The position numbers and the translations under genes were made by a program. A DNA stretch of 57,038 nucleotides from an uncultured Candidatus Saccharibacteria bacterium (lineage in GTDB: Bacteria > Patescibacteriota > Minisyncoccia > 2-02-FULL-40-12 > GWA2-44-9): contig CAZAUE010000003.1 of the NCBI GenBank assembly GCA_964488565.1, positions 1-57,038 of the forward strand, in the 5' to 3' direction. Of this stretch, positions 2,718 through 43,463 are shown one piece after another. Within the stretch, counting starts at the first letter, position 1. The number at the start of each line of letters is the position of its first letter. Under the pieces are notes generated by a model. It was not told the DNA's origin and made no database searches. It saw only the letters and a program-made list of their open reading frames with translations.

Positions 2718-3935
2718 ATGAACAGAACCGAACAGTTGATAGCTGAAACAGATAGATATCTTGCTCACAACTACCATCCATTACCGGTCGTCTTTACAAA
2801 GGCGAAGGGTGTTTGGTATTGGGACGTTGAGGGAAAAAAGATTATGGACATGCTTGCTGGTTATTCGGCTGGTAACCATGGCCACTGTCATCCTCGTATT
2901 GTTAAGGCGTTAAAGGATCAATGCCAAAGACTGGTAGTTGCTCCTCGTTCAGCTTACTCAGATAAGCTTGCAGAATTTGGGCGGGTTATTACTGAGTTTT
3001 GCGGAATGGATAAAATCCTACCTTCTAACGGTGGGGTTGATGCTGTTGAAACGGCAATAAAATTAAGCCGTAAGTGGGGATATACTTACAAAGGCATTGA
3101 AGAGAAGAGTGCCGATTCTGAAATCATTGTTTGTTCCGGTAACTTTCATGGCCGAACCACAACTGTTGTGGGCTTTTCCACTGAGAGTCAGTATCGAAAA
3201 GGATTTGGGCCTTTTGCTCCCGGATTCAACGTAATTGAATTTGGAAATTCAGATGCTTTGGAAAAAGCGATTACCAGAGATACCGTAGCGTTCTTGGTTG
3301 AGCCCATTCAGGGTGAGGGTGGAATAAATATTCCCCCAAGCTCCTATTTTAGAGAAGTTGAACTGATTTGCAGAGAGAAAAATATCCTTTTGATTTTGGA
3401 TGAAATCCAGACTGGATTCGGAAGAACTGGTTATGATTTTGCTTTTCAGCATGAAAATATCCGACCCGACATTCTGATAATTGGAAAATCTCTTGGTGGT
3501 GGTATGGCCGTTTCTGGGGTTTTAGCAAGTAATGAAATAATGAGTGTCATGACTCCTGGTGATCATGGAAGCACCTTTGGTGGAAATCCTTTGGCCTGTG
3601 CTGTTGCTATTGAGGCAATCAATGTTTTGAAGGATGAGGAACTTTCAAATAGATCAGCTTTGATGGGAGATTATTTTAAGTGGAGACTAAAAGCAATAAA
3701 GAGCCCGCTTATAAAAGAGGTCAGGGGAAGAGGGTTAATGATAGGTGTTGAGCTTACTCCTCAAGCTGGAGGGGCAAGACGGTTTTGTGAAGCTTTGCTG
3801 AATGAAGGAATTTTCTGCAAAGAAACTCGCGACAACATTATTCGGTTTACTCCGCCACTTATCATAACGCAATCGCAGATAGATTGGGCGATGAAAAGAA
3901 TAGAAAAAGTTTTTCAAAATGAGGTGAGGAAATGA
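2718..3935 (+). CDS. rocD: Ornithine aminotransferase (class III PLP-dependent)
   Basis: AHNYHPLPVV, MDMLAGYSAGNHGHCHP, EPIQGEGG, DEIQTGFGRTG, PLP Lys in IIGKSLGGG, HGSTFGGNPLA. Confidence 0.88.
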   Translation: MNRTEQLIAETDRYLAHNYHPLPVVFTKAKGVWYWDVEGKKIMDMLAGYSAGNHGHCHPRIVKALKDQCQRLVVAPRSAYSDKLAEFGRVITEFCGMDKILPSNGGVDAVETAIKLSRKWGYTYKGIEEKSADSEIIVCSGNFHGRTTTVVGFSTESQYRKGFGPFAPGFNVIEFGNSDALEKAITRDTVAFLVEPIQGEGGINIPPSSYFREVELICREKNILLILDEIQTGFGRTGYDFAFQHENIRPDILIIGKSLGGGMAVSGVLASNEIMSVMTPGDHGSTFGGNPLACAVAIEAINVLKDEELSNRSALMGDYFKWRLKAIKSPLIKEVRGRGLMIGVELTPQAGGARRFCEALLNEGIFCKETRDNIIRFTPPLIITQSQIDWAMKRIEKVFQNEVRK

Positions 3936-4870
3936 GCAAAGTATTATTTGGTGGAATTTTATTTATTTTAGCATTAACTCTTGTTGCGTGTAATCCGCCA
4001 CCCGTTGAGAATGTTTACCGTAAGGAGATGCGTTTTCCCTCAACCCTTAATGTTCCAGTAGCATTTCTAGCGGTTGAATGGGGCGGTAAGCTTCGAGGTT
4101 CGGGTTCCGCGTGGCTCATTGATGGCGGTAATGGGGTTTTGTTTACCGCAAAACATGTCACTGATGCTCTCATGAATAATCAGATTGAGTTGGGTGCTAA
4201 TGAGTGTAAATTGTTTTTGGGAAACGGTAGGGTCTTTACCTGCATTACTGTTAGGGTTCCGCCATTGCGGGATGCTGTAGTGTTGAGGTTGCTTGAAAAA
4301 TTCAACCTCGAAGAGATGCCTAAGCCATATAAGATTTCAGAAAAGAAACTTAAGGTTGGGGACAAGATTTATGTTCAAGGATTTCATTCTCACCCACTTG
4401 ATGTGACTATTTCGAACAAGGAAGACGGGTTTGAAGATTTGACCGTCCCAATTTTGGAAAATTTTTACGAAATAAGGGAGGCTGATCCTTTAAGACAAAG
4501 AGAGGTCGTATTTGATAGCTTGGAGGCGGTGGTGGTTGATGTTGATGCCCGCGTTAATATTGGTAGCGATGAACCAAATTCTTACGATGCAATTAGATAC
4601 AAAACCAATGATTATATTAAGGTTATTACCACCAGAAATCATAAATTCTCCTTCGGAGGATTAAGTGGTGGTGTAGCGGTGAAGATTAATGATCAGGGAG
4701 TTCCTGAGGCTGTGGGGATTGTGACAGCCGAAAGATCCGAAAGATGGGGATATGATAAAAAGGGTAACCTTGAGGGTGTTAAAGCCCCCGTAATTATTTC
4801 GGACACCATCTTCATAACGCCAATCAGTTCTGTAAAAGAGCTTTATGAGTATGCAAGGCAAATTAGATAG
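3932..4870 (+). CDS. Lipoprotein, trypsin-like serine protease
   Basis: Lipobox LVA-C; triad candidates TAKH, RDAVVL, GGLSGG; ATGA overlap with rocD. Confidence 0.7.
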   Translation: MSKVLFGGILFILALTLVACNPPPVENVYRKEMRFPSTLNVPVAFLAVEWGGKLRGSGSAWLIDGGNGVLFTAKHVTDALMNNQIELGANECKLFLGNGRVFTCITVRVPPLRDAVVLRLLEKFNLEEMPKPYKISEKKLKVGDKIYVQGFHSHPLDVTISNKEDGFEDLTVPILENFYEIREADPLRQREVVFDSLEAVVVDVDARVNIGSDEPNSYDAIRYKTNDYIKVITTRNHKFSFGGLSGGVAVKINDQGVPEAVGIVTAERSERWGYDKKGNLEGVKAPVIISDTIFITPISSVKELYEYARQIR

Positions 4871-4874
4871 TTTT

Positions 4875-4908
4875 ATCCCACACATAGAATCCTATGTGTG
4901 GGATTTTT
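4875..4908 (+). terminator. Intrinsic terminator
   Basis: 13-bp stem atcccacacatag/ctatgtgtgggat followed by T run. Confidence 0.8.
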
Positions 4909-4977
4909 GTTTGATTGACCTTCTTTGTTATTTTCAGTATTATCTTGGGCAAGTACGTTAAAAATTGAGAGACAGAA

Positions 4978-6120
4978 ATGGCACTCACAGACCCGAATGA
5001 AGCGAGAAAATTAATCAGAGCTTTAAAGGCTCAACCAGAGAAGTTTTTATTCGGACTCAACAGGGCAGTTTACAATGCTGTACTGGCACTTGTTACGCCA
5101 ATCGCGAAGGATGGGCCAATGGGCAAAGAATGGGCTCAAGCTCACACACTGGTCTCAGACGTTCCTGGTACCGGTAAAACGGCGATGTTTAATTATTTGG
5201 CTTCAGCGATGAAAGCTAAGCTTGGAAGGGTCGATGGTAGACCTGATTTGATGCCGAGTGATTTTACGGGCAGAGAAGAGAAGGATAAATTTTCTGGCGT
5301 CAGAACCCTTTTGAAGGGCCCTCTCTTCAGCAACATCTTTTTTGCCGATGAAGTTAACAGAACTCCTCCCAAGAGTCAGGCTCCAATGCTTGGCGCCATG
5401 GAAGGTGGTCATGTTTATATTAATATAACGAATGAAAAGGATGGGGTAATTGAGTCAAAATCGTTTCCTCTTTTTCCGGTTCCGGATGATCCGACCAGAA
5501 TGTTTTTCATCACTTTCGCAACAATGAACCCAATTGAGTTTGAAGGAACCTATCCTTTGTCAGAAGCTCAGCTGGAGAGATTTACCTATCGTTTTGTGAT
5601 GGGTGCTCCATCAAGAGAAGAAGAAAAGATGATTAGGTTTGAAAACGTTGTTGGAAAAAAAGTTGAGATCGTGATGGGTTTGGGCGATCTTCTTGATATT
5701 CAAGAAATGGCAAAGAAAATCAGATTAACAGATGAAGCGAACGATCTTATTATGCGCTATCTGCAGAATTCAAGAACCCATGCTCAGGATGAGCGAGAAT
5801 TTGGCAAAACTCAAAAACGTGACGCCTCAAAAGATCTCGTGACCTTTGTTAATCAGTATGTTACTTCAGGTTGTTCACGAAGAAGAAATTATCACATGCA
5901 AGGTGCAGTGTTGGGCCATCGGCTGATGCGTTTGTTGTTGTCCGATGATAAACCAATTGAAAACCTTGATAATGTTAAAGCTACTGTTGATGATGTGAAA
6001 GCTATTGCTCCGCTTACAATGGAGCATGTGATTCTTCTTGAACCCAGATCTCTCGGAGATGATGTCACTACCAAGAAAGTGGTGAGAAGGATTATTGAAG
6101 AAACACCAATGCCATCATGA
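4978..6120 (+). CDS. MoxR-family AAA+ ATPase (MxaR-like)
   Basis: Walker A DVPGTGKT, GRPDLMPSDFTG, FADEVNRTPPKSQ, NPIEFEGTYPLSEAQLERF. Confidence 0.9.
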   Translation: MALTDPNEARKLIRALKAQPEKFLFGLNRAVYNAVLALVTPIAKDGPMGKEWAQAHTLVSDVPGTGKTAMFNYLASAMKAKLGRVDGRPDLMPSDFTGREEKDKFSGVRTLLKGPLFSNIFFADEVNRTPPKSQAPMLGAMEGGHVYINITNEKDGVIESKSFPLFPVPDDPTRMFFITFATMNPIEFEGTYPLSEAQLERFTYRFVMGAPSREEEKMIRFENVVGKKVEIVMGLGDLLDIQEMAKKIRLTDEANDLIMRYLQNSRTHAQDEREFGKTQKRDASKDLVTFVNQYVTSGCSRRRNYHMQGAVLGHRLMRLLLSDDKPIENLDNVKATVDDVKAIAPLTMEHVILLEPRSLGDDVTTKKVVRRIIEETPMPS

Positions 6121-7055
6121 AGGACCTAAGTTTCAACGACGTCCTTGCGGCGCTGACTCATATTAAGAGCGGTATCCCACTAGAAAGATTAACAAGCAGA
6201 ATTCGTCTGGGTGAACACAGGAGTTTATTTTTTGGTCCGAGTCATAATTTGTATGACATCAAAGAATTTGATCCAGAATGTGATCCACCAAATATGATTG
6301 TTGAAGTTCCGGGTGGCGATGAAGATGTTGTTTATGCTAGAAGATGTATTGAAACCCACGAGGTTAAAATAAATTTCCTTATAGATTTAAGCCCTTCTGT
6401 TTATGCGGGCGTGGATCTGAATAAGAGAAAATTACTTCTTGAGGCACTAGGCTTTATCGGAGTTACCGGTGTTCGTTATGGTGATCCAGTTGGATTCACT
6501 GGTTTTACAGATAAGATAGTTTTAAATTCAACGCCAAGGTGTGGTGCTAATAATTTTTATTATCTTGTTAGGATTGTTTACGATTATTTAAGAGACAACG
6601 ATCCAACCAAAAAGAAAATCAAGAAAGATAAAACCGATTTTTTTGCAGCATTGGATTTTGTGAGAAGGTCGTTTGATAAGTCGTGTTTTATTCCCGTGAT
6701 ATCTGATTTTGTGGGCTTTGAGAAGGTTGTTGATTCGCCCCTCTTGCGCATGGTTGCATCAAAGCATGAGTTGATATTTATATTTTTGGACGACCCGCTA
6801 GAGTTGTTGGGAGCTCAAGGTTTTGGGCAAATAAGAACAGAAGACATAGAAAGTGGAGACCAAATTGTTGTCTCAAGAAGAAGATTGTCTCAAATTGAAA
6901 AAGAAATTAGAGCTGAACGGAGAGAATTAAGAACAAAATTAAGGAGAATGGGTATCGATTCTGTTGTTTTGGAATATGGTAAACAGGGAAGACATTTTAA
7001 TAGATTAACTAGGTTTTTCCTGAGAAGACACAAGAGACTAAGTTTTAGAAGATAG
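6117..7055 (+). CDS. DUF58 / MxaS-like vWA-associated protein
   Basis: GEHRSLFFGPS, KEFDP, FLIDLSPS (DxSxS), VISDF; coupled to MoxR by ATGA overlap. Confidence 0.82.
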   Translation: MKDLSFNDVLAALTHIKSGIPLERLTSRIRLGEHRSLFFGPSHNLYDIKEFDPECDPPNMIVEVPGGDEDVVYARRCIETHEVKINFLIDLSPSVYAGVDLNKRKLLLEALGFIGVTGVRYGDPVGFTGFTDKIVLNSTPRCGANNFYYLVRIVYDYLRDNDPTKKKIKKDKTDFFAALDFVRRSFDKSCFIPVISDFVGFEKVVDSPLLRMVASKHELIFIFLDDPLELLGAQGFGQIRTEDIESGDQIVVSRRRLSQIEKEIRAERRELRTKLRRMGIDSVVLEYGKQGRHFNRLTRFFLRRHKRLSFRR

Positions 7056-7063
7056 AATTAGTC

Positions 7064-7089
7064 ACCGCCCTTTACTGGGCGGTTTTTTT
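7064..7089 (+). terminator. Intrinsic terminator
   Basis: accgccc/gggcggt stem followed by T7. Confidence 0.75.
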
Positions 7090-7133
7090 GTTATACTATC
7101 TTCGCAAAGAACCTTAACATTTTAGAGGATGCG

Positions 7134-8243
7134 ATGAGATACAAACTGCTCATCTGCGCTTTTCTATTGTTAATTGCTACACCAGCATTAAGTCAAGAAT
7201 TTTCTCCGATTGTTATTGAAACTGGCAAGCCAAATCCGAGTGTCGTTAAAAGTGGGGAACCTTTCAAGGTTACCTATAGGGCTAAGTTTTTTGACACCGT
7301 TCTTATTTATGAAGAGCGGATGAGTCCTGATAATTTGGCTCTTGAAAAAGTTGAAGCCATTGACCTTGAGGTTTCTAAGGTAAGAGTAAACAACGACTCC
7401 CTCGGATTCGTAAATGTTTGGGATTTTACTTACACCTTCAGAATTATTCAACCAGAGAAACAGGGATATAAGATTCCGCCGTTTAACTTTATTTGGGCTG
7501 AGAAAAAAGCAGGAGTTACTGAAGTTCAAACCAAAGAAAATGAAAAACCAAGAGAGATTTTAACTGAAGAGGTTGGTGTTAATTATGTTTCTTCGATTGT
7601 GAAACCGCCACCCCTTGATATTAGGGATGATATTGATTTCACTCTCCCACTGGTAGGTGGTACTGTTTTGCGCCGATGGGCCTATGCTGTAATGGGAGTT
7701 TCGTTCTTGATTTCTCTGTTTACTATTTTCAGGTTTTCTAGACGTTTAAAGCTCAAGAAAACTCAGGATCTCAGCAGGAAAGATATTTCCACAGAAGTTC
7801 CAGGCGATGACTTCATTGTTGGCACAGAACTAATTCTTTCACCAAAGAAAGCCAGAAAGAGATTCTTGGGAGAATTGAAAAAGTTGTATTTATACGATGA
7901 GGAATCGTTTGGATTAACAAAAGAAAGAAGACTTCGCCAGCTTAGTAGAGATTTACTGTTAGCAGAATTACAGGGAACGATACGAGATTCAATGTCTGAA
8001 AATGAGATTTGTGCCAAATTGTGCGAGCTTGATGAGAAACAAAAAAAACTGATTGGCTTAAAGTATTCAACCATGCTCGGTGTGGCAAGAAGATTGAAAA
8101 AATATCAGGAATGTATTGATTCGGGAACATATTTCCTGAGTGTTAATGATGAGATTGTCGAATTGCACAAGATGGTTTCTGGTCTTAAGTTCTATAAACA
8201 AGTCTTATCTTTCATTAGTCACTTAACCAAGAGGGGGAATTAA
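7134..8243 (+). CDS. Signal peptide + Ig-like + TM protein (MxaA/BatD-like)
   Basis: N-terminal signal ATPALSQE, VVKSGEPFKVTY, YKIPPFNF, single TM near residue 185; position in MoxR cluster. Confidence 0.6.
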   Translation: MRYKLLICAFLLLIATPALSQEFSPIVIETGKPNPSVVKSGEPFKVTYRAKFFDTVLIYEERMSPDNLALEKVEAIDLEVSKVRVNNDSLGFVNVWDFTYTFRIIQPEKQGYKIPPFNFIWAEKKAGVTEVQTKENEKPREILTEEVGVNYVSSIVKPPPLDIRDDIDFTLPLVGGTVLRRWAYAVMGVSFLISLFTIFRFSRRLKLKKTQDLSRKDISTEVPGDDFIVGTELILSPKKARKRFLGELKKLYLYDEESFGLTKERRLRQLSRDLLLAELQGTIRDSMSENEICAKLCELDEKQKKLIGLKYSTMLGVARRLKKYQECIDSGTYFLSVNDEIVELHKMVSGLKFYKQVLSFISHLTKRGN

Positions 8244-8244
8244 G

Positions 8245-9396
8245 ATGTCCTCAAGTTTATTCTATGTTTGGGAATTAATCAGAGCGGGCCTAAAAAGTTT
8301 CCGAGATACGAATTTTGATCTTGTCGGATTTGATTCACGGGGCCTTGCTTTTGGAGCGGGCCTTTTTATTATTCTAATTCTGTTGTTTAAGCTTTTGTGG
8401 GGTCGTAATAAGTTTAGTCATGTCAGTTCTGGGCACCGCATTTCTAGGAAATATCAGCAAGGAAAACTTGTTAAGATTATCTTTTTAACTCCCAAGATTC
8501 TTCTTGGTGTGGCCACTGTCTTTTTACTGATTGGTTTGGCTAATCCTTATTTACCCAAAACCACCGAAGAAAAGGTGGTTCAGTCACGGGAAAGAATTGA
8601 TTTGATTGACACATCATCTTCAAAGGGCTGGGAATTTGAACGCACTGGAAAATCTGCCGGACAACTTGGTCGTGAAGCATTTCTAAGATTCTTAAAAATG
8701 CGTCGAGGCCAAAACGACAGAACTTCGCTTTGGACTTTTTCCGACAACCCATATATAAGAGAAGATTTTATCATTGATGATGATATCTACATGATGCAAG
8801 CTGAGGATGCTCCCTATATAACTGTTAGTGAAGGACATCCAGCTCTTCCTGAAAACGATAAGGATGATCAAAATTTAGATATAATTACCCCGAGAGATAA
8901 AATCCAGTTTATCAATGGAGAAGCTGGCACAGATTTGAACAATGCTCTTGATGCCGTGATTAAGTATTTTGACAGAGAGGGGAATAAAAAAATTAAGAAC
9001 AAGGCTTTGCTAATAGAAACTGATGCGGCCGTTGAAGATGATGCGGAGCCGTATTTGAGGGAGCTTAAAAAAAGAAACATAAAAGTATATCTTCTACACA
9101 TTAAGCCAAACATAGAAGGCGAGAGTCAGTATGCCAACTTGAAAGGCCTTGAACATGCCGCACTGTTAAAGAAGAAGGTCTTGCAATATGGTGGTAATGT
9201 TTATGACATTCAAGACAAGAAAAGTATTGAAAATGCTTATAGAGAGATTGATAAACTAGAAAAGGCGCCCATCCTGACAGTTAGACATCTTTTTAGAGTT
9301 TTTATCTATCAAAGACCACTCTTTGTTGCGATTGCGCTGATGCTTTTGGCAATAGCAATGGGTTTGTTGATGGAAATAGTTAATGAGAATCCATAA
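8245..9396 (+). CDS. Membrane vWA protein (MxaC/BatA-like)
   Basis: N-terminal TMs, LIGLANPY, MIDAS DTSSS, AGTDL, LIETD, IENAYREIDKLEK, C-terminal TM. Confidence 0.78.
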   Translation: MSSSLFYVWELIRAGLKSFRDTNFDLVGFDSRGLAFGAGLFIILILLFKLLWGRNKFSHVSSGHRISRKYQQGKLVKIIFLTPKILLGVATVFLLIGLANPYLPKTTEEKVVQSRERIDLIDTSSSKGWEFERTGKSAGQLGREAFLRFLKMRRGQNDRTSLWTFSDNPYIREDFIIDDDIYMMQAEDAPYITVSEGHPALPENDKDDQNLDIITPRDKIQFINGEAGTDLNNALDAVIKYFDREGNKKIKNKALLIETDAAVEDDAEPYLRELKKRNIKVYLLHIKPNIEGESQYANLKGLEHAALLKKKVLQYGGNVYDIQDKKSIENAYREIDKLEKAPILTVRHLFRVFIYQRPLFVAIALMLLAIAMGLLMEIVNENP

Positions 9397-9420
9397 TCCC
9401 CGCTAAAGTGCGGGGATTTT
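9395..9420 (+). terminator. Intrinsic terminator
   Basis: aatccccgc/gcggggatt stem with T tail. Confidence 0.7.
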
Positions 9421-9526
9421 TACCCCCACACTCATTCATGAGTGTGGGGGTTTATTTTTGACAGTGCTGGAACTTAGTTTTATAGTAATCCCAAGAACTT
9501 TTAAAATTGCATAATAAGAAGGGAAT

Positions 9527-10240
9527 ATGAGAAAAAGAACCGCTGTCGGTGGTTGGGTTGTGCTTTTTGTGAAGCTGGCATTAGTTGTTTCTGTGGCAAC
9601 AGTTTTAAGCTTTACACTTATTACTCTCGCCAACCTTAGCGATAATGTAAAAAGATTTTCTTTCTACGTTAAAATAAATGATGCTGAAATGGCCAAAAAA
9701 GAACTTATTGGTCTCCATTATTTTTATGACCTAAGCCGTAAGTGGAAAGTTCAGTGGCTGGCGGACAAATATTTATTTGGCGACGCACTATTTTATGAGG
9801 TTTCCGATTCGTACCTCATAAGAGATTGGGAGAAAGTTCGGAACGATCTAAAAGAAAAATTAGATGATCCGAAATCTTATCCTTATGGAAATGCAAAATT
9901 TAGACAAGCTCAAGCCCTCTATAATAATGGTTATGAAAAAGAAGCACTGGAGCTTGTGTTAACCGAGGTGGCTGCTGATTATGAAAAAGCTCTCAGAAAT
10001 TGCTTGGGTTCGATGGCGCCATACGACAAATGCTTTGATCGTGTTTGGAATTATGATTTGGCAACCAACAAGAAAAATGCCGAAGAGGCCTTGAAGAATC
10101 CTTCGCCTGTGGTGCCATTTATTCTTGGGCCGCCAAAAAAAGATGGAGAGCCAATATTGCCTCCGCCCAAAGTGCCAGGTGGTGGGGGTAAAGAAAGTGA
10201 AGAAAAGCCAGGTGGTGGGGGAGCCAAAAAAAGACCATGA
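9527..10240 (+). CDS. MxaK-like TPR-type membrane-anchored protein
   Basis: N-terminal TM; YGNAKFRQA...ADYEKALR...WNYDLA pattern resembling MxaK/BatC; Pro/Gly-rich tail. Confidence 0.55.
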   Translation: MRKRTAVGGWVVLFVKLALVVSVATVLSFTLITLANLSDNVKRFSFYVKINDAEMAKKELIGLHYFYDLSRKWKVQWLADKYLFGDALFYEVSDSYLIRDWEKVRNDLKEKLDDPKSYPYGNAKFRQAQALYNNGYEKEALELVLTEVAADYEKALRNCLGSMAPYDKCFDRVWNYDLATNKKNAEEALKNPSPVVPFILGPPKKDGEPILPPPKVPGGGGKESEEKPGGGGAKKRP

Positions 10241-11424: not shown

Positions 11425-11481
11425 GTATGGCCCCGTTGTTGCGGGGCTTTTAATTTGCCTAGATTTTTGTATTGTAGGGTT

Positions 11482-15113: not shown

Positions 15114-15133
15114 TTGTAAAAATAAAAATTTAA

Positions 15134-16846
<1,713 letters not shown>

Positions 16847-16903: not shown

Positions 16904-17036
16904 GGGTGTGGTTATCCACACATCTTTTGAGTGAAAAAATGCTATGGTGTAAATAGCTAAAAAACTATTTTGGTGTCTAACGTATTAGCCTTTATTTAAG
17001 CGCTAGCTCTTACACCAAGTGGTCTCAAAATTGAAT

Positions 17037-18029: not shown

Positions 18030-18071
18030 GTGGCGGGTGCAAATAATTTAACTAACTAAAAATTATTTAAC

Positions 18072-19883: not shown

Positions 19884-19904
19884 GTATTGATAAAAGTTGA
19901 AAAC

Positions 19905-19935
19905 CAAGAGTCCCGCCACGGTGGCGGGACTCTTG
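19905..19935. repeat. Near-perfect 31-bp palindrome between adhesin and sortase genes
   Basis: caagagtcccgccac-g-gtggcgggactcttg. Confidence 0.8.
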
Positions 19936-19959
19936 TGGCGATAATTTTTTGAAAAGTTT

Positions 19960-20621: not shown

Positions 20622-20710
20622 GGAGGAGTCGGATAGTGGTTTATTCCACCGCCTTGGAAAGGCGGCATCCCGCAAGGGATACGTGAGTTCGAATCTCACC
20701 TCCTCCGCCA
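20622..20710 (+). tRNA. tRNA-Ser(GGA)
   Basis: Acceptor ggaggag/ctcctcc-GCCA; anticodon arm ccgcc-ttGGAaa-ggcgg; long variable arm atccc-gcaa-gggat; T arm gtgag-ttcgaat-ctcac. Confidence 0.96.
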
Positions 20711-23105: not shown

Positions 23106-23251
23106 GACTTGTGACCATGGCCAAGTCTTTGCCAAGTATATTTTCAGGGTTAGGTGACTCCGTTATGGCGGGGTCTTTTTTTTGCTTGCAAAAGAGGGGA
23201 GGGTTGCTATACTTCGGGCAGATTTCTGCTCTTTGTCAATTAGGACAAGAA

Positions 23252-26200
23252 ATGGCCAAGAAATTGGTTCTTTTGGTTTTGATTATTCTGTTGATGCCGT
23301 TTACTGCTTATGCTCAGTTTGGTAAGAATCAGGTAATTTGGGAAAAGACGACGTGGAATTTTTATCAGTCTGCCCATTTTGATTTCTACTTTTCACTTGA
23401 GATTAAAGACGAAGAAGTCCAAAAGCATTTTGCTAATTTGGTAGCGCACGTGGAAAACTCTAGTGAGTTTTTGAGCGTCAAACTCAATCACCAATTAAGG
23501 AAGCGACCAATCGTAGTTGTGTCACGTACACATAGTCAATTTGAAGCTCTCCACCTTGCTGGTGGCGAGTTTATGCCTGAAGGAGTAGGAGCTTACGCTT
23601 TTCCGCGTGGTTCTCGTCTTACGTCCGATTCAGACATGATTCTTGTTGTTAAGCCGGATTTTTTACCGGTCTTGAACCGCACGATCTTCACTCATGAATT
23701 GGTTCACATTTTTCAGTTTGATATGGTGAGCCGAGGTTTCCTTAGTCGGACTATTGGTGCTGATCCCATTGAACAGTGGTTATATGAAGCAACCGCCGAT
23801 TATTTGGCGAATAAATTTGCTCCATATTCACGTGACGACATTCGCAAGATGGAACAACGTTTGGCTGCGGCTAATGTCAAAAATCCCCAAATGGGATTGC
23901 CTACGTTGGAAATGTTGTCACAAGGCCAAGCCAATCCTTATTCGCTTGGAGCTATGGTGTTTATGTTTCTTGAATCAAAATATGGCGAGCAAGCGACTGC
24001 AGATTTGGTCATGGGTATCTTTAAGAGGCGTGGTCAAAAATTTGACGAACTTTTAGCAGATATTTCACAGGGAGAGTTTTATAATGCCGAGGCATTTGAT
24101 CGGGCGCATCGGAATTATTGGGCAGAAAAATATGCCAAGGATTCTTTGGATAGACCAAAGCCTTATCAGGAAACTTCCAGCATGAAGAGTCGTCAAATTA
24201 TCAAACAACCCTATCCTTATCCGCTGACATCAACCGAGATATCACCCGATGGAAATTTTGTAGCTTTTTTGACTTACAATCCCAAGAACGGGATTGTCTT
24301 GGCGGTATCACATATGCTACCGCAAGATGATTTACCATATGTTCCTTTGGCTAAGCGCAAAAAGTTCCGCGTGTTTGGTAACAAGGTTGCCATTCAGGGC
24401 AAGCCCATACAAGTCTTAACAACATTTATGCCTCCTAAGCATTACGAGTACATTATTGCTCAGGAGTTAAATGTTTGGCCATTCAACGGTTCAGATTTGG
24501 ACTGGTGGCAGGACAAAGAATGGGCGTCTAAGGTTGGAGATGCTGAATATATTCTTGAGATGGACAATAAAAATCTTGCCGAACTCAGGGCAATGGTCTC
24601 AAAGGACAGACCCAACGATTACAATGAAAGGATTGTGGCGATAGAAGAAGAAATTAAGTCTGTTGAAAAGGATATTAAACAACTTAAGCGCACTCCCGAT
24701 GTTAGTAAGATTGCTTTTTTTGCCCGCAACAATAAGGATCATGCCTTATTCGTCCTGGATGTTAATACGGGTAAATTTGTTCAAGAAATTGAAATTCCTC
24801 TTGATCAGGCATTTTCTCCCAATTTTAGTTCTGACGCTAAGTTGATTTATTTCTCCGCAGCCAAGAATATTCAAAGAGATATTTATTCAATGAATCTTGC
24901 AACCCGCGAGCTGAAGAATCTAACTAATGGTGGTGTGTTTAATAGTGCACCTCAAGTATCACCTGATGGAGCTAAGATTGCTTACGTAGCATTTGACGGT
25001 AGTTTTCAGAAGTTATTCATGTTGGATATGGTCACTGGCAATAAGGAACAGTTAACTTATGGCCGATGGAATGATAATTCGCCGAGCTGGTCATCTGACA
25101 ATTCAACTCTTGTATATACTTCTGATGAAAAGGATGGAATTTGGAATCTATACACACTTGATTTGTCAGCCCATGTCAGTAAGCAGTGGTCGGAGGTTTA
25201 TGGAGGTATTTTTACTCCTAAATTTGTTACCGACGAGAACTATGACAGGAATGATCGTGTTGTGTATTCAACCAACATGGAAGACGATCAGTTCAGAAGT
25301 TATATTTTTTCCAACTTTGAATTGTTTGATTCTCGCCTAAAAGAACCACTCAGAACTTTTGCGATTGAAAATAAAAACGAGAATATGGAATTAGCCTTCC
25401 GAAGTCAGGGGGCAGTTGAAGAGCAACTTGAACAGAGTCAGTTAAGTAATCCTCAAGAACCGCCGGCTCGTTGGAAACTCTATGGATCCGATGTAACCAT
25501 TGGCTCAAGTTCATATTGGGGAATATTTGCTAGTTCACAATTTATGCTTCAGGACATGTTGGCTAATCGAACTTATTCTGGTATTTATGCTCAACAGGGC
25601 GGATTCAATTATATGGACTTTTCATACTTGAATCGGTCTCGTCGTTGGGGTTGGGCGGCAAACGTTAACAGGGCTCAATACCCACTGTATTACATGTTGC
25701 GAGATTTTAAGGGTCAATATCCTCGTTATGAGAACCCTAATGGAGAACATGACCAATTTACTCTTAACAATACTTGGGTAAAAGAATTAAGCTCTTCGCT
25801 TTATGTGGAATACCCATTTAACAAGTGGAATCGTCTTGAATTGGGAATTAGACCACACAAGCGTTCATACTTCCTGCCCCTTACAGATGAAAGTCTTGAG
25901 CTTTTTGGAGATTCAATTCCAGAGATTGATCGACAGATGTACAGGTTCTTTAAAGATTCAAATGGTCAGGCAAATGTTGGTTTCACCGCGGCATTCGTGC
26001 GTGATACGATTCTTTATTCCAATGATACGCTTGGACCAATGCATGGCAATGCTCTTCGTGGTCAGGTGGAATATGGACCAGGCCTTAACAAAAATTCAGC
26101 AGCATATTTTACAGCGCAGTTTGATGCGCGTAAGTATATAAGACTATCAAACAGTTCCTTGTTTGCCGTTCGTGCTACAGGACTTAATAGTAATAGGCCT

Positions 26201-26581
26201 AACGGAGAATTCATGTTGTTGGGTGGTAGTGACACGCTTCGCAACTATCCTTACTTCAGTATTGCTGGTAATCAGGTTGGTTATGGAAGCGCAGAATTAC
26301 GATTTCCCGTTGCTGATGTGTTTCTTCTCGGCTCTATCCCATTTCAGGTTAGAGGAACATTTTTTGGTGATTATGCGATAGCTAAATTTAGTAACCCACG
26401 AGCGCAGCGAGCGGAGCTATCGTCGTATGACGGCAACACTTCACTTCCTGCTCGCCGTGAATGGGCGTATGGTGTTGGACTGCAAGCCTATGTCTTTTTG
26501 CCACTGAACTTTGAGTGGGCAAAGACAAGGTTTTCACCGGACAAGTGGACCTTCAATGTCCGAATCGGATTTAGTTTTTAA
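23252..26581 (+). CDS. Zn-peptidase (MA-like) + PD40/TolB-like propeller + Omp85 (BamA/TamA)-type beta-barrel protein
   Basis: Signal ending AYA-QFGKN (ATG 23252); HELVH..E; repeats SPNFSSD, APQVSPDG, SPSWSSD; LGGSDTLRNY lid loop; ends FNVRIGFSF. Confidence 0.82.
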   Translation: MAKKLVLLVLIILLMPFTAYAQFGKNQVIWEKTTWNFYQSAHFDFYFSLEIKDEEVQKHFANLVAHVENSSEFLSVKLNHQLRKRPIVVVSRTHSQFEALHLAGGEFMPEGVGAYAFPRGSRLTSDSDMILVVKPDFLPVLNRTIFTHELVHIFQFDMVSRGFLSRTIGADPIEQWLYEATADYLANKFAPYSRDDIRKMEQRLAAANVKNPQMGLPTLEMLSQGQANPYSLGAMVFMFLESKYGEQATADLVMGIFKRRGQKFDELLADISQGEFYNAEAFDRAHRNYWAEKYAKDSLDRPKPYQETSSMKSRQIIKQPYPYPLTSTEISPDGNFVAFLTYNPKNGIVLAVSHMLPQDDLPYVPLAKRKKFRVFGNKVAIQGKPIQVLTTFMPPKHYEYIIAQELNVWPFNGSDLDWWQDKEWASKVGDAEYILEMDNKNLAELRAMVSKDRPNDYNERIVAIEEEIKSVEKDIKQLKRTPDVSKIAFFARNNKDHALFVLDVNTGKFVQEIEIPLDQAFSPNFSSDAKLIYFSAAKNIQRDIYSMNLATRELKNLTNGGVFNSAPQVSPDGAKIAYVAFDGSFQKLFMLDMVTGNKEQLTYGRWNDNSPSWSSDNSTLVYTSDEKDGIWNLYTLDLSAHVSKQWSEVYGGIFTPKFVTDENYDRNDRVVYSTNMEDDQFRSYIFSNFELFDSRLKEPLRTFAIENKNENMELAFRSQGAVEEQLEQSQLSNPQEPPARWKLYGSDVTIGSSSYWGIFASSQFMLQDMLANRTYSGIYAQQGGFNYMDFSYLNRSRRWGWAANVNRAQYPLYYMLRDFKGQYPRYENPNGEHDQFTLNNTWVKELSSSLYVEYPFNKWNRLELGIRPHKRSYFLPLTDESLELFGDSIPEIDRQMYRFFKDSNGQANVGFTAAFVRDTILYSNDTLGPMHGNALRGQVEYGPGLNKNSAAYFTAQFDARKYIRLSNSSLFAVRATGLNSNRPNGEFMLLGGSDTLRNYPYFSIAGNQVGYGSAELRFPVADVFLLGSIPFQVRGTFFGDYAIAKFSNPRAQRAELSSYDGNTSLPARREWAYGVGLQAYVFLPLNFEWAKTRFSPDKWTFNVRIGFSF

Positions 26582-26594
26582 TTGATAAGATTAT

Positions 26595-26620
26595 GCCCCA
26601 CATTTTGTGGGGCTTTTTTG
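26595..26620 (+). terminator. Intrinsic terminator
   Basis: gccccaca/tgtggggc stem followed by T6. Confidence 0.75.
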
Positions 26621-26721
26621 TGCTTTGTAATTACACTTTTGAATGAGTGCGGGGGTTTACATTTTCGGTAGGTGGCATATAGTTTCAGGCAGATGTCTGC
26701 TCCTTAAAAACAGGAATTCAC

Positions 26722-27360
26722 ATGCACTTTTTATTGGCCGCTTTTCTTGCCTTGGAAATTGTGAGTTCTGGCATTTTTAGCCAGGATATTTCACCGCCTG
26801 ATGTGGAAAATTTCAATATAGTTTTGTCCAAAGAACTTGAGTTTCGTGTGGATGATTATAAGACCGCTTTTGTTGGTCGAGTGGTTGTTTATCAAAACCC
26901 AGACGACCCAAACGAATATACAAGGGTATATTATCGGCAGATAGCTATTATTTCTGAGCGAGCTCAAGAAAAAAGCATCTCAGAAACCGGTGTTTTGGAG
27001 AATAATTCTTCTAATCTGAATTACCATCTTAAACAAGAGGAAGAAGTTTTGGATAGAGTTCAGCAGGCAACCGATGCTTTTGCTTATGTTAAATGGCGAA
27101 CAGATCGCGACCCACGAACTGGGCAAGATTTCAGGGCAGGTCCTCTTCAGTCGTGGCTTTTGGAACAAAATGGAAATTGGGTCTTCAGTTCAGAATTGAG
27201 TATTTTTACGATGCCATTTTCCGAACGCTCAAAGGCAAATCCAGACAAGTTAATTATCGTTGGAATTCAGTTTACTTTGGCGGGTGGATCTCATGTTGTC
27301 CGCATTGATCAAGATGAACTGATTATTTACAAGAAAGGATCGGTCGATGACAAGAAGTAA
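26722..27360 (+). CDS. Secreted hypothetical protein
   Basis: Signal-like N-terminus; overlaps start of next gene by 14 nt; aggaa SD-like site. Confidence 0.65.
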   Translation: MHFLLAAFLALEIVSSGIFSQDISPPDVENFNIVLSKELEFRVDDYKTAFVGRVVVYQNPDDPNEYTRVYYRQIAIISERAQEKSISETGVLENNSSNLNYHLKQEEEVLDRVQQATDAFAYVKWRTDRDPRTGQDFRAGPLQSWLLEQNGNWVFSSELSIFTMPFSERSKANPDKLIIVGIQFTLAGGSHVVRIDQDELIIYKKGSVDDKK

Positions 27361-28621
27361 GGTGCTTGCGCCAATTATTCTATTATTGCTTGCAGTTGGC
27401 CTGACTGCGCAGGCAGGATGTGCCTCTAGTGGTAATAAAAAACCAACCATATTGGTGGATCAATACAATAATGTTCCAGCTGACATTCAGTCTCAGTTTT
27501 TGGATCGCTACAGGCGATTTATAACCGGCAAAGAACGTAAAGAATTTGAGAAACTTCTTACAGATGAAGAACGAGATGTGTTTATTGAAAACTTTTGGGC
27601 CAAACGAGATTCTGATCCCGCAACGCCCGAAAATGAATTTAAGAAAGAAGTTGATGATCGGATTGAGAATATTATTAATGAAAGCTTTTTTGGAACATTT
27701 GGTGCTGGGGGATTAATGTTCAGATCAAATGGTGGGTTCAATGGGGGCATGGCTCATGTTTATCTTCTTCATGGAGAACCCGATGTTGTGGATTTGATTG
27801 AAGGTGGTTCGTTTGTCCCTATGATGCTTTGGGTTTATATCAATCCCGAAAATGGTCGACTTCTTTATGCCTTTATGTTTTATCAAAAAGGTGGCTCAGG
27901 AGAATTTACTTTATTTTACCAAGATTCTTACAAAATGGATCAGTGTGGAGCGATTTATGAAGTCGCTACTGTGCGGAGTTACAACTACAATGGTGGAGGC
28001 GGGCAAAATTGCCCCAGCGATTTGTATGATGTCTATGGAGAAATCGCTAGGTCTACTGGTAAAAATGGTTTTTTGGACGGAAACATGTTTGCTTGGGCAT
28101 TGTTTAACTTTTCAAGTAACTCAGATTTGAAACTTGAAGTCGCCCTTGACCCCCCAAAGCCAGCTTCGGAGATTGCCGTCAAATCAAAGGCGCGCGTGGT
28201 TGGTGAGGCGCCAGAGCTTGTTGGCACCATCGGAACTGACTACATTATTAATTCTTGTGAGAGATGTAATTCATTAATTCCAGCCCAACTTATATTTGAT
28301 AAGGAATTGGCCTTATTAATCAGACGCAGTGATGTTGACTGGCGAGTTGTTAACGATGATGCCGGGTTGGAGTTAAAGGTAAGGGTGATGGTTGAAGACA
28401 ATAAGAATCAAATTCCTTCGTTGGTTTTTGAAAAAAATGTTTCTTTCACCGACAAGAAAGAATCGATCATGTTGGACCCTCTTGGTCAGAACACTGTTGT
28501 TCTCTTGACCGAGGATGAGGTGGCTAAAATTCCGGCCGGCAGTTATCGGGTCAGTGTTTATGTAAAAAACACAATGACTCAAAAGTATAATGCTTGGCTC
28601 AGAGAGATTGTTGTAAAATAG
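27347..28621 (+). CDS. GWxTD domain-containing exported (possibly lipo-) protein
   Basis: FITGKERKEFEKLLTDEERDVFIENFWAKRDSDPATPENEF...R; VYLLHGEPD; signal with AG-C. Confidence 0.75.
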   Translation: MTRSKVLAPIILLLLAVGLTAQAGCASSGNKKPTILVDQYNNVPADIQSQFLDRYRRFITGKERKEFEKLLTDEERDVFIENFWAKRDSDPATPENEFKKEVDDRIENIINESFFGTFGAGGLMFRSNGGFNGGMAHVYLLHGEPDVVDLIEGGSFVPMMLWVYINPENGRLLYAFMFYQKGGSGEFTLFYQDSYKMDQCGAIYEVATVRSYNYNGGGGQNCPSDLYDVYGEIARSTGKNGFLDGNMFAWALFNFSSNSDLKLEVALDPPKPASEIAVKSKARVVGEAPELVGTIGTDYIINSCERCNSLIPAQLIFDKELALLIRRSDVDWRVVNDDAGLELKVRVMVEDNKNQIPSLVFEKNVSFTDKKESIMLDPLGQNTVVLLTEDEVAKIPAGSYRVSVYVKNTMTQKYNAWLREIVVK

Positions 28622-43458: not shown

Positions 43459-43463
43459 ATTAT

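Follow-up and report, generated by a model that had tools for sequence, protein, structure and literature searches.

A peptidase-propeller-barrel protein of the Omp85 superfamily in a gene neighbourhood shared among Candidatus Yanofskybacteria

Within the Omp85 superfamily, a branch of "WD40-Omp85" proteins has been described (PMC4104836). We scanned a collection of 185,579 species genomes, CPR included, and confirmed 451 relatives of the barrel protein reported here; CPR account for only 9 of the best 80, and the others are from Thermoanaerobaculia, Vicinamibacteria, and other Acidobacteriota (23-29% aa identity), the exceptions being a record from candidate division B38 and two whose titles say only "uncultured bacterium." The nearest relatives outside CPR are WD40-Omp85 proteins of Acidobacteriota (24-29% aa identity). 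Of 74 non-CPR loci, nearly all of them acidobacterial, 69 have the barrel gene in another conserved operon, after genes for a TPR lipoprotein and a ~235-aa protein. CPR bacteria reportedly have no outer membrane (PMC12102498; PMC10160955), and the ancestral outer membrane is inferred to have been lost in CPR (PMC10160955). Candidatus Yanofskybacteria, a small clade of ultra-small CPR bacteria thought to be free of an outer membrane, nevertheless stably keeps a gene that joins a protease to an outer-membrane-type (Omp85/BamA-like) barrel. It is unexpected for a CPR clade to have an Omp85-superfamily barrel under purifying selection, and the finding merits follow-up.

The DNA analyzed (the window; 57,038 nucleotides) is a groundwater contig of Candidatus Yanofskybacteria (Parcubacteria/CPR), and named relatives of its genes are Candidatus Yanofskybacteria, Patescibacteria, or Paceibacterota. 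A preliminary description listed five gene sets in this window, separated by core-like genes (groESL, tRNA-Ser(GGA), DUF5667, and dnaG). All five sets are present where it placed them, the names it gave mostly hold, and all of the separators were confirmed. The features are as follows.

3932..4870, + strand: trypsin-fold serine protease lipoprotein, 312 aa (lipobox, catalytic motifs)
4978..11424, + strand: six-gene MoxR/Bat-like cluster (Pfam, NCBIfam, motifs), comprising the next six lines
4978-6120, + strand: MoxR AAA+ protein (Pfam AAA_3, 115 bits; Walker A GTGKT)
6117-7055, + strand: DUF58 protein (Pfam, 55 bits)
7134-8243, + strand: protein with signal peptide and TM segment
8245-9396, + strand: VWA membrane protein
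9527-10240, + strand: TM protein
10237-11424, + strand: VWA_2 membrane protein (Pfam VWA_2, 37 bits)
11455..12471, + strand: u338, conserved cytoplasmic protein (61-72% identical in relatives' loci L009, L015, L094, and L095)
12910..14724, + strand: secreted S55-like serine peptidase homolog, 604 aa (signal peptide, remote PF05580 homologs)
14826..16846, + strand: groES and groEL, core genes (Pfam Cpn10, Cpn60)
17019..20559, + strand: two Ice_binding-like proteins and a sortase, a monoderm-type surface block (Pfam Ice_binding, 89 and 75 bits; Sortase, 86 bits)
20622..20710, + strand: tRNA-Ser(GGA) (ARAGORN, Rfam tRNA)
21191-22270, + strand: DUF5667 secreted coiled-coil protein (Pfam)
22350-23105, + strand: HAD-like hydrolase (Pfam)
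23252..26581, + strand: exported 1109-aa peptidase-propeller-barrel protein (AlphaFold2, Foldseek, NCBIfam, motifs)
26722..27360, + strand: u212, clade-specific secreted 212-aa protein (signal peptide)
27347..28621, + strand: GWxTD-domain lipoprotein, 424 aa (NCBIfam TIGR04514, 48.3 bits vs. a cut-off of 28)
28792..31802, + strand: dnaG and rpoD, the conserved core anchor downstream of the barrel, u212, and GWxTD genes (the trio) (Pfam)

In Yanofskybacteria-type contigs, the order is lipoprotein protease, MoxR cluster, u338, S55-like gene, groESL, and, further on, barrel, u212, GWxTD, dnaG, and rpoD. This synteny holds across barrel-protein identities as low as 33-35%, although only one relative locus reaches far enough upstream to show where the lipoprotein protease lies. 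Because at least six assemblies, and distant relatives too, share the window gene order, it reflects neither a misassembly nor an island. The exact window GroEL protein occurs on 13 contigs, and the six places listed, from assemblies of several runs, have identical gene order; junctions linking groEL, the barrel gene, and dnaG-rpoD are common to >25 contigs, the longest of 265 kb, sampled at different sites. The misassembly for which the preliminary description had allowed was thus not found. In GC, GC3, tetranucleotide, and codon usage, the five sets fall within the range of the core genes, tetranucleotide uniformity being one of the checks proposed in that description. Core-like composition, shared order, and clade-restricted families support its view of an old, ameliorated acquisition rather than a recent island. 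Its statement that no transposase or integrase is nearby holds for the region itself, where no integrase was found, but a serine recombinase is encoded ~10 kb beyond it, at 38480-40162. On balance, this 25-kb stretch is probably a conserved, vertically inherited chromosomal neighbourhood of Candidatus Yanofskybacteria that holds four separately transcribed envelope units rather than one system.

The barrel protein is a Sec-exported, POTRA-less member of the WD40-Omp85 branch, in which a zinc metallopeptidase (HExxH...E) and the propeller are fused to a barrel with a canonical C-terminal aromatic beta-signal. Its parts are as follows.

Residues 1-22: signal peptide
Residues ~23-300: gluzincin-type metallopeptidase, with HELVH at 148-152 and E179
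Residues ~305-705: TolB-like beta-propeller, with a coiled-coil insert at 421-480, then a linker
Residues 741-1109: 16-strand Omp85/BamA-type barrel, with the C-terminal end ...RIGFSF

AlphaFold2 modeled this protein (pLDDT 84.2, pTM 0.84) with a closed 16-strand barrel at high confidence, and Foldseek aligned the model to BamA barrels (E ~1e-10, TM-score ≤0.63) and also to TolB; the NCBIfam TolB propeller matched at 93 bits. Remote homologs carry PF13485 and PF01103, and the window protein itself falls below Pfam detection for both. Residues H148, E149, H152, and E179 are invariant among 46 sequences. A C-terminal F or W, within an FxFRIGFNF-type beta-signal, is present in 57 of 57 clade barrel proteins. 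The Omp85 motifs L6 LR(G/N)Y and beta13 FxDx(G/A) were found, in the window as LRNY, in which the L6 glycine is substituted, and FFGDYA; the L6 motif is degenerate in a few members. Along the barrel strands, hydropathy correlates with that in non-CPR homologs (r = 0.68), and the faces still alternate; the mean Kyte-Doolittle value for the hydrophobic face is 0.68 in the clade vs. 1.02 in the non-CPR (mainly acidobacterial) homologs. Within the crown group, conservation of the barrel (64%) and of the peptidase domain (74%) is about alike.

The barrel may hold the peptidase and propeller in a lipid bilayer beyond the cytoplasmic membrane, and this bilayer could belong to the cell itself or to a host. 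As in tricorn- and DPP-IV-type enzymes, the propeller could control the passage of peptides or unfolded proteins to the zinc site. Partners would be u212 and the GWxTD lipoprotein, encoded by a bicistronic pair that follows the barrel gene.

The barrel gene is flanked by a promoter-like site (23186-23213) and a terminator-like hairpin (26595-26613) of its own and therefore shares no operon with u212 and GWxTD. The end of u212 overlaps the start of the GWxTD gene by 14 bases, and a terminator-like hairpin lies 3' of the latter (28624-28648). Others lie 3' of the S55-like gene (14731-14752) and at 4875-4904, where the hairpin sets the lipoprotein protease apart as its own unit. Such hairpins follow most of the blocks for which a terminator was originally claimed.

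The protein u212, which the preliminary description did not mention, has no Pfam or NCBIfam match. Its gene adjoins the barrel gene in 13 of 13 relatives' loci and 14 of 14 metagenome loci of sufficient extent, and its position between the barrel and GWxTD genes is constant. The protein resembles the acidobacterial ~235-aa partner at most weakly (hhalign probability 4.5%). The GWxTD lipoprotein, whose Cys25 is nearly invariant within AQAGC, combines an N-terminal GWxTD domain with a clade-specific C-terminal beta-sandwich, and its AlphaFold model is confident only at residues ~300-424. This family comprises 63 full-length representative clusters; outside these, GWxTD matches cover the domain only (profile positions ~35-187), in proteins of 600-1200 aa. 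In every locus that extends far enough, the barrel, u212, and GWxTD genes are followed, after zero or one gene, by dnaG-rpoD, and rpoD identity is 81-99% across all syntenic loci.

The lipoprotein protease has an LVAC lipobox at residues 17-20 and a catalytic triad of H75, D114, and S245 within TAKHV (72-76), RDAVV (113-117), and GLSGG (243-247); the Pfam Trypsin match, at 19.8 bits, is just below the 20.6 cut-off. In the MoxR cluster, both VWA proteins have DxSxS MIDAS motifs (DTSSS and DRSIS), and NCBIfam gave weak BatA/BatB matches. MoxR and DUF58 have neither a signal peptide nor a TM segment, which goes against the proposal that every member is exported or membrane-bound. The u338 gene, whose product has no Pfam or NCBIfam match, always sits between this cluster and the S55-like gene, which in turn is always directly 5' of groES-groEL. 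The S55-like protein has no direct Pfam or NCBIfam match; it matches ~600-aa PF05580-bearing proteins (E ~1e-21 to 1e-14, 21-32% aa identity), on which the S55 model covers only profile positions 93-194 of 210. Within Yanofskybacteria, the family shares 38-89% aa identity, and M92, S93, G94, S95, P96, G233, H234, and D278 are invariant, as is the GMSGSP motif. In the two outside S55-like loci examined, the gene is paired with one for a ~750-aa propeller protein, and no MoxR/VWA genes occur within 10 kb. Neither MoxR/VWA clusters nor trypsin-like lipoproteins are confined to diderms, as both also occur in monoderms and archaea. Only the unit at 23252-28621 is truly diderm-type, and the proposed diderm character applies to that unit and not to the MoxR-DUF58-VWA cluster or the trypsin-like lipoprotein; the latter two and the S55-like peptidase make up the other three units, with no demonstrated tie to an outer membrane.

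Regarding origin, the barrel, S55-like, and GWxTD families each form a clade-restricted block, beyond which matches outside CPR drop to 22-29% identity or to the domain only; this pattern fits an old acquisition. The taxon-named outside relatives, one to three per family, are all from Acidobacteriota, namely for the barrel, for the S55-like protein (Terriglobales), and for GWxTD (Aminicenantales, Acidoferrales, and Thermoanaerobaculia). In a neighbour-joining tree, the CPR barrel clade has a long stem and branches outside the sampled Acidobacteriota rather than within them, so the tree fixes neither donor nor direction; the single donor phylum raised in the preliminary description agrees with the few names. 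Ancient acquisition is supported, and we infer that the trio came in once, long ago, into the clade ancestor from an acidobacterium-like diderm and then gained new partners; Acidobacteriota barrel loci have the TPR lipoprotein and ~235-aa partner, whereas Yanofskybacteria loci have u212 and GWxTD.

It is unlikely that the five gene sets form, as first proposed, one coherent protease/barrel/metal-loading system taken from a single host lineage and used at the host interface. All units lie within one conserved neighbourhood and the named outside relatives point to one phylum, yet each family has so few names, and soil and groundwater data sets sample Acidobacteriota heavily. In the 74 non-CPR loci, the barrel gene has no other window gene within 10 kb; outside S55-like genes keep other partners; and two of the five units are of the kinds also found in monoderms and archaea. 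A close relative, L094 (groEL 91% and rpoD 98% identical to the window), has ~345 bp in place of the ~7.3-kb trio segment but keeps the protease (59% identical, same place), the MoxR cluster (54-67%), and the S55-like gene. In L095, the MoxR cluster is only 25-27% identical vs. 41-73% for flanking genes, which argues for separate unit histories. GWxTD-like regions are fused to VWA domains elsewhere (P0407, P0385, and P0439), and TPR repeats occur both in typical GWxTD proteins and in the neighbour of the acidobacterial barrel gene; the fusions could tie the trio to the VWA cluster, and the independence of the four units is thus not absolute. A chimeric assembly or binning error joining diderm and CPR DNA is effectively refuted: the contig does carry both a diderm-type barrel gene and a sortase block of monoderm type, and two related records are titled "Candidatus Saccharibacteria," but the six listed GroEL places come from different assemblies, the junctions recur, and composition is uniform.

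More doubtful than a single system is vertical descent of the trio without transfer, as a relic of a diderm CPR/Terrabacteria ancestor kept only in Yanofskybacteria. The CPR barrels form one deep clade (internal identity to ~33%) outside the sampled acidobacterial classes, the trio has a fixed chromosomal position beside dnaG-rpoD, and loss of an ancestral outer membrane has been inferred (PMC10160955). However, the long stem may be an artefact of fast evolution, and the rarity of CPR among the best 80 of the 451 relatives means that retention requires very many independent losses. Furthermore, the MA peptidase-propeller-barrel architecture is otherwise concentrated in one phylum, and neither a POTRA-bearing BamA nor another outer-membrane gene was found in the 57-kb window. 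Similarly improbable is a domain that no longer works as a membrane barrel in these cells, in a protease that is secreted or wall-associated and keeps its C-terminal part for folding, oligomerisation, or the like. The altered L6 VRGY-type motif, the somewhat lower hydropathy of the hydrophobic face, a lineage thought to be monoderm, and sortase-anchored proteins close by are consistent with this; the unbroken beta-signal, the modeled closed barrel, its conservation much like that of the catalytic domain, and the preserved amphipathic alternation are not, and we know of no soluble monomeric Omp85 barrel. A conserved neighbourhood of separate units, with an anciently acquired trio, remains the preferred reading.

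Sortase/LPXTG surface proteins are typical of monoderms. The block at 17019-20559, which is absent from the preliminary description, is variable, with no matches at this place in relatives' loci; its Ice_binding-like proteins carry the sorting signals LPRAG and LPSTG, and a TM segment and an RRK tail come after each. The HAD-like gene is 58% identical in L095, where it is likewise upstream of the barrel gene. The GTG at 23102 is probably the wrong start for the long barrel ORF; ATG 23252 gives a signal peptide and is located 3' of terminator-like and promoter-like sites. The start of u338 is probably ATG 11482.

The window is a metagenome contig from groundwater (Rifle-type). Based on domain and signal-peptide searches, the gene calls of the preliminary description were essentially right, with caveats; every gene mapped between 3932 and 28621, as well as dnaG and rpoD, lies on the + strand:

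3932-4870, +, lipoprotein protease with trypsin fold
4978-6120, +, MoxR protein (AAA_3)
6117-7055, +, DUF58 protein
7134-8243, +, signal-peptide/transmembrane protein
8245-9396, +, VWA protein
9527-10240, +, transmembrane protein
10237-11424, +, VWA_2 protein
11455-12471, +, conserved cytoplasmic protein of unknown function (u338)
12910-14724, +, secreted 604-aa protein with GMSGSP (S55-like)
3' of the S55-like gene, +, groES and groEL
17019-20559, +, two Ice_binding-like proteins (LPRAG/LPSTG sorting signals) and a sortase
between the sortase and barrel genes, +, tRNA-Ser(GGA), small membrane protein, DUF5667 protein and HAD-like hydrolase
23252-26581, +, large exported protein (the barrel protein)
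26722-27360, +, secreted 212-aa protein (u212)
27347-28621, +, GWxTD lipoprotein
3' of the GWxTD gene, +, dnaG and rpoD

The exact GroEL protein of the window is encoded on 13 contigs, and the records of relatives with the same gene order carry the names Ca. Yanofskybacteria, Patescibacteria group or Ca. Paceibacterota; in NCBI taxonomy, Ca. Yanofskybacteria belong to the Parcubacteria group within Patescibacteria. The six places shown, which come from assemblies of different runs, all keep the order from MoxR to the barrel gene. Because this order recurs at these six places and the relatives carry CPR names, we rejected misassembly or misbinning of the window as very unlikely. Two loci titled “uncultured Candidatus Saccharibacteria” (CAZZGH010000012.1 and CAZENF010000003.1) show full synteny with the window, with RpoD sequences 99% and 82% identical; based on sequence, they are probably Yanofskybacteria-type Parcubacteria with an automatic label. 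At the start of the contig, beside uvrC, a small membrane protein gene (284-634, -) belongs to the Phage_holin_4_2 family (87 bits). The Ice_binding-like (DUF3494) surface proteins have Pro/Thr-rich linkers and sorting signals in which LPRAG or LPSTG is followed by a transmembrane segment and RRK, with the sortase gene 3' of them; this block is missing from this position in all relatives, and several assemblies call its first gene differently.

The long reading frame of the barrel gene opens at a GTG at 23102, and the extension contains a promoter-like site at 23186-23213, preceded by a terminator-like hairpin at 23156-23175. Translation from the ATG at 23252 begins with a signal peptide (MAKKLVLLV...AYAQ) and yields a product identical to a protein in the database (P0001). 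AlphaFold2, using 46 homologs, gave a confident model (pLDDT 84.2, pTM 0.84) with a helical/beta peptidase domain at residues ~23-300, a beta-propeller at ~305-705 that is split by a two-helix coiled coil (421-480), a linker of ~35 residues, and a C-terminal barrel of ~16-17 strands at 741-1105 (pLDDT mostly 80-94). Foldseek searches of the PDB with this model identified BamA barrels (E ~1e-10; TM-score 0.59-0.63 on barrel-only entries) and TolB propellers, and the sequence itself matched the NCBIfam TolB propeller model with 93 bits and Pfam PD40 with 43 bits. As modeled, a TolB-like propeller lies N-terminal to an Omp85 barrel, which is the arrangement of the WD40-Omp85 subfamily, and the barrel is predicted to be of the 16-strand, C-terminal BamA/FhaC type typical of the Omp85/TpsB superfamily.

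HELVH (148-152) and E179 are invariant in 46/46 aligned sequences, CPR and non-CPR; they correspond to the gluzincin zinc site of MA-clan metallopeptidases, with catalysis predicted. PF13485 is carried by remote relatives only. At E <= 0.01, PF01103 has no match in the window protein, and in precomputed annotation it is present in P0032, a clade member with 55% identity, and in relatives with 22-27% identity. Most barrel proteins of the clade (the Yanofskybacteria-type family) fall short of PF01103, which would explain why marker surveys based on that model miss them.

Within the barrel, GGxDTLR(G/N)YP...AELRFP resembles the VRGF region of loop 6, and FFGDYA resembles the FxDxG motif of beta13. 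Loop 6 reads LRG followed by Y, C or A in non-CPR relatives and in 9/13 deep-branching CPR members, whereas the window and most of the crown group have N in place of this glycine (LRNY); the motif is degenerate in a few members. F1038 and D1040 of the beta13 motif are invariant, with A in place of the final G. The C-terminal residue of the clade proteins is F (48/57) or W (9/57), in an alternating FxFRIGFNF-type tail, and it is F in 84/84 non-CPR relatives; by sequence, this end has the character of the aromatic beta-signal of the Omp85/TpsB superfamily. Two insertions are specific to the crown group, a coiled coil within the propeller and a helical one within a barrel loop.

In the model of the window protein we found no POTRA domain (no beta-alpha-alpha-beta-beta unit), and the sequence has no POTRA Pfam match; the protein is therefore not BamA. 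BamA proper, in which one to five POTRA domains are expected, was ruled out, as a peptidase, a propeller and a ~35-residue linker precede this barrel. BamA, the core of the E. coli/Salmonella BAM complex, is nevertheless the best structural match for residues ~741-1109 (TM-score ~0.6 on barrel-only structures), and it has analogous GGxDTLR(G/N)Y...AELRFP and FxDx(G/A) motifs and a C-terminal beta-signal; however, sequence identity is ~14-15%, and nothing about the window protein indicates insertase activity. A further comparison is BepA, which acts at the BAM complex in the periplasm and combines a zinc metalloprotease with a repeat domain. This likeness is a working analogy only; BepA belongs to the M48 peptidases, its repeats are TPRs, and it lacks a barrel. 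The same applies to PlpD of type Vd secretion (PMC4104836), which likewise fuses an N-terminal enzyme domain to an Omp85 barrel but has a patatin passenger and a POTRA domain. No sequence relationship of the window protein to PlpD or BepA was found.

The combined sequence and model evidence places the barrel protein in the WD40-Omp85 branch, which was defined bioinformatically by Heinz and Lithgow (2014) (PMC4104836). As in that branch, a TolB-like N-terminal propeller replaces the POTRA domains and is fused to a 16-strand C-terminal Omp85 barrel with recognisable L6 and beta13 motifs and an aromatic end. The window protein differs in that it occurs in a CPR lineage held to be monoderm, in that the L6 glycine is an asparagine, and in its extra N-terminal gluzincin peptidase domain, which it has in common with acidobacterial relatives. 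The gene partners differ as well, being u212 and the GWxTD lipoprotein here and a TPR lipoprotein and a ~235-aa protein in Acidobacteriota. To our knowledge, no member of the WD40-Omp85 subfamily has been studied experimentally. The barrel protein is a variant of this bioinformatically defined subfamily, unexpected in its lineage and new in its gene partners.

A word-based protein search identified ~57 full-length relatives of the barrel protein (32-100% identity), with CPR names wherever they were named; the next proteins, which have PF13485 and PF01103, are 21-27% identical. We also used an alignment of the CPR members to scan one genome per species across 185,579 species, and 451 relatives were confirmed. 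Among the best 80 of the 451, nine are Yanofskybacteria-type CPR, and nearly all non-CPR relatives are Acidobacteriota (Thermoanaerobaculia, Vicinamibacteria and “Marinacidobacterales”; 23-29% identity), the exceptions being one candidate-division B38 record and two titled only “uncultured bacterium.” Every CPR locus that reaches far enough has the order barrel, u212, GWxTD, (0-1 gene), dnaG, rpoD, even at 35% barrel identity. A metagenome scan for u212 added 14 loci with the same order wherever they were long enough; these matches are all close clade members, and the scan found no u212 relatives outside the clade. The upstream order of MoxR cluster, u338, S55-like gene and groESL is equally conserved.

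One close relative lacks the trio of barrel, u212 and GWxTD genes. On this 450-kb contig (L094; GroEL 91% and RpoD 98% identical), the lipoprotein protease, MoxR cluster, u338, S55-like gene, groESL and dnaG-rpoD are all retained. Nucleotide alignment places ~345 bp in L094 opposite ~7.3 kb in L009, a CPR locus in which that segment contains the barrel, u212, GWxTD and GATase genes, and the absence looks, from this alignment, like a deletion. When L094:15375-16170 is set against L009:9131-16920, exactly the barrel/u212/GWxTD (+ GATase) segment is missing, and the HIT ORF called upstream is shortened. Because L094 lacks the trio and keeps the rest, the trio behaves as one unit of loss, independent of the other flagged genes in the region. 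The preliminary description had, as a hypothesis, treated the lipoprotein protease, the mxa-like cluster and the S55-like, barrel and GWxTD genes as one coherent, host-derived diderm module; the loss of the trio alone contradicts this, as do the non-CPR barrel loci, where the other genes do not accompany the barrel gene. In 74 such loci, we found none of the other window genes within 10 kb of the barrel gene, relaxed thresholds included.

Instead, a ~235-aa secreted protein gene adjoins the barrel gene in 69/74 non-CPR loci, directly upstream where examined, and 65 loci also have a TPR lipoprotein gene, beside dprA/topA. Across these loci (L011-L013 and L022-L093, almost all Acidobacteriota), the TPR lipoprotein, the ~235-aa secreted protein and the MA-peptidase/PD40/Omp85 protein form a conserved trio, located ~1.5 kb upstream of the barrel gene; the ~235-aa protein has a weak FlgT_M-like match. 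We know of no characterisation of this trio. As a candidate diverged copy of the ~235-aa acidobacterial protein, u212 shows only a faint local resemblance to it (36 columns, hhalign probability 4.5%), and no cross-matches between the two came up with jackhmmer.

In a distance-based, midpoint-rooted neighbour-joining tree of the barrel proteins, the CPR sequences form one deep clade on a long stem, which branches off between acidobacterial groups and an unnamed, more remote one; the clade is nested in no sampled class. An exhaustive profile search for the GWxTD family found 63 full-length representative clusters; beyond these, the N-terminal domain alone matches, within proteins of 600-1200 aa. 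The three outside GWxTD proteins with taxon names are from Aminicenantales, Acidoferrales and Thermoanaerobaculia, all Acidobacteriota. The S55-like proteins form a Yanofskybacteria block (38-89% identity), beyond which there are 21-32% matches to ~600-aa proteins, mostly with PF05580, one of them named Terriglobales. By sequence, the barrel, S55-like and GWxTD families point to one phylum, Acidobacteriota, with few names, low identities and heavy sampling of that phylum.

The rest of the proposed toolkit, beyond the barrel, is ordinary. The MoxR cluster has matches to AAA_3 (115 bits), DUF58 (55 bits) and VWA_2 (37 bits) in Pfam, and its second VWA protein falls below the cut-off yet carries DTSSS; the adjacent AAA_3, DUF58 and MIDAS VWA genes are, by sequence, those of a MoxR/Bat-type AAA+-VWA cluster. 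The Bat operon of Bacteroides and Leptospira and mxaRSACKL of methylotrophs have the same domain order (AAA_3, DUF58, membrane, VWA, membrane, VWA, with MIDAS). However, the NCBIfam matches to BatA and BatB score 15 and 31 bits (cut-offs 380 and 350), and no match to BatC, BatD or BatE was found in the window. The 57-kb window contains no methanol dehydrogenase, PQQ dehydrogenase or mxa genes, and identity with mxaRSACKL was rejected because linkage to mxaFI/xoxF is missing from it. With the Bat cut-offs far off and methanol dehydrogenase genes absent, the proposed role in metal loading is only an analogy. Clusters of this MoxR-DUF58-VWA type, including the Bat operon and mxaRSACKL, are widespread in diderms, monoderms and archaea, so the cluster, contrary to what had been supposed, is no marker of a diderm envelope; neither is the lipoprotein protease, which has a plausible Ser/His/Asp set and nothing diderm-specific.

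In the Ca. Yanofskybacteria assembly GCA_001794435.1 (L095), the MoxR cluster is 25-27% identical to that of the window, whereas flanking genes are 41-73% identical, which suggests a separate history of the cluster; it may be a xenologous replacement. At L095:1-6687, the flanking u338, S55 and GroEL proteins are 61%, 41% and 73% identical, and a BamB/PQQ-type propeller gene (497 aa) is inserted.

The S55-like protein shares the invariant GMSGSP with SpoIVB S55 (PF05580) and full-length similarity with the ~600-aa acidobacterial PF05580 carriers. Unlike SpoIVB, it has no direct PF05580 match, no PDZ domain and no sporulation context; its relatives match positions 93-194 of 210 alone, the C-terminal half of the S55 model, and the invariant GMSGSP and GH occur in the order Ser...His, the reverse of SpoIVB. 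In the two outside loci examined, a ~750-aa propeller protein is encoded 3' of the S55-like gene, and no MoxR cluster was found within 10 kb. Sequence searches of the PDB with the GWxTD, S55-like and lipoprotein protease sequences gave no meaningful match.

The GWxTD lipoprotein matches TIGR04514 with 48.3 bits (cut-off 28), and some clade members match PF20094, consistent with membership in the GWxTD domain family; we found no mention of this domain in the searchable literature. AlphaFold gave a poor model of this protein (pLDDT 58). In the window, the domain stands in a lipoprotein of 424 aa whose C-terminal beta-sandwich is specific to the clade; outside CPR, it is fused to TPR repeats, to an M56 peptidase with TonB_C, or to VWA domains, in proteins of 600-1200 aa. 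GWxTD-like regions are fused to VWA domains in 3/9 outside proteins examined, the rest having TPR repeats or M56/TonB_C; these architectures hint at joint action of GWxTD domains with VWA or protease/transducer modules, and the VWA fusions argue for some cross-talk between the units. Among the outside proteins, P0407, P0385 and P0439 combine a GWxTD-like N-terminal region with Big_7 and VWA, and P0380, P0384 and P0374 combine it with a BlaR1-type M56 domain (TonB_C once).

From sequence and model together, the trio system has export signals, an intact zinc site, and a propeller and closed Omp85-type barrel with a beta-signal, and the barrel gene is strictly linked to the secreted protein and lipoprotein genes. 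We propose that the barrel would sit in a lipid bilayer beyond the cytoplasmic membrane and keep the peptidase and propeller in the space beneath it, or at the surface. The propeller might limit access to the zinc site, by analogy with tricorn- or DPP-IV-type peptidases, and u212 and the GWxTD lipoprotein would be partners of the barrel protein.

As a genomic marker of an outer membrane, Omp85/BamA-family barrels are the most general one in use. CPR have been reported to be without such a membrane and are counted among the lineages in which it was lost (PMC10160955, PMC12102498), and the same window that encodes the barrel protein also encodes sortase-anchored surface proteins. The bilayer could be an unrecognised second membrane in this clade, or it could be the outer membrane of a diderm host into which the barrel is inserted; alternatively, the membrane function of the barrel may have been lost. 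Set beside this last alternative are purifying selection on all domains of the protein, conservation of the barrel to about the level of the catalytic domain, and barrel-strand hydropathy that correlates with that of non-CPR homologs (r = 0.68), with alternating hydrophobic and polar faces retained. At somewhat less than an even chance, these data may mean that Ca. Yanofskybacteria keep a working outer-membrane-type barrel, either in a second membrane of their own, as diderm or partly diderm CPR, or as an Omp85-anchored protease with a GWxTD partner that the epibiont plants in a diderm host's outer membrane, the host perhaps being an acidobacterium.

Either form, own membrane or host insertion, would make this the first description of an outer-membrane-type beta-barrel system in CPR. 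We found no report of Omp85-family proteins in CPR in the searchable literature, and none that links Patescibacteria with Omp85, Parcubacteria with BamA or Yanofskybacteria with an outer membrane. A CPR clade that has long retained a protease-fused barrel with an intact beta-signal offers a handle on the envelope architecture of uncultured CPR and on how epibionts engage diderm hosts, and it illustrates that divergent barrels can escape marker surveys. If the link to Acidobacteriota holds, it yields a hypothesis, open to testing, about the host or donor of a CPR group from groundwater.

The view that these genes are an old, ameliorated acquisition rather than a recent island was supported. In GC, GC3, tetranucleotide correlation and codon usage, the flagged genes overlap with groEL, dnaG, rpoD, murJ and obg; no integrase was found within 3.9-28.6 kb, the nearest recombinase being at 38.5 kb; and the position of the trio and its neighbourhood is fixed throughout the clade. 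On these grounds, a genomic island or recent horizontal transfer was rejected. The suggestion that each block has its own terminator held in part: terminator-like hairpins follow the protease, DUF58, both VWA, S55-like, HAD, barrel and GWxTD genes, but the scans were consensus-level, with 25 hairpins found against 17 expected.

Downstream of the region are a serine recombinase gene (38480-40162, -), a group I intron-like RNA, a LOOT RNA and a low-GC segment. The intron match (Rfam RF00028; 38301-38485, +; 65.5 bits, over the gathering score) sits between an HNH-endonuclease-like ORF (37839-38246, -) and the large serine recombinase gene, with no obvious host rRNA or tRNA gene there. The LOOT RNA (RF03000; 41393-41513, +; 73 bits) lies directly 5' of a gene for a small membrane protein with four transmembrane segments (41537-42010). 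At ~43000-48900, GC is 0.32-0.34, compared with ~0.39 elsewhere; this stretch, beside the recombinase, encodes an 864-aa PHP/SMC-like ATPase, a DnaA_C-like HTH protein and a GT4 glycosyltransferase, and it may be a mobile or defence island.
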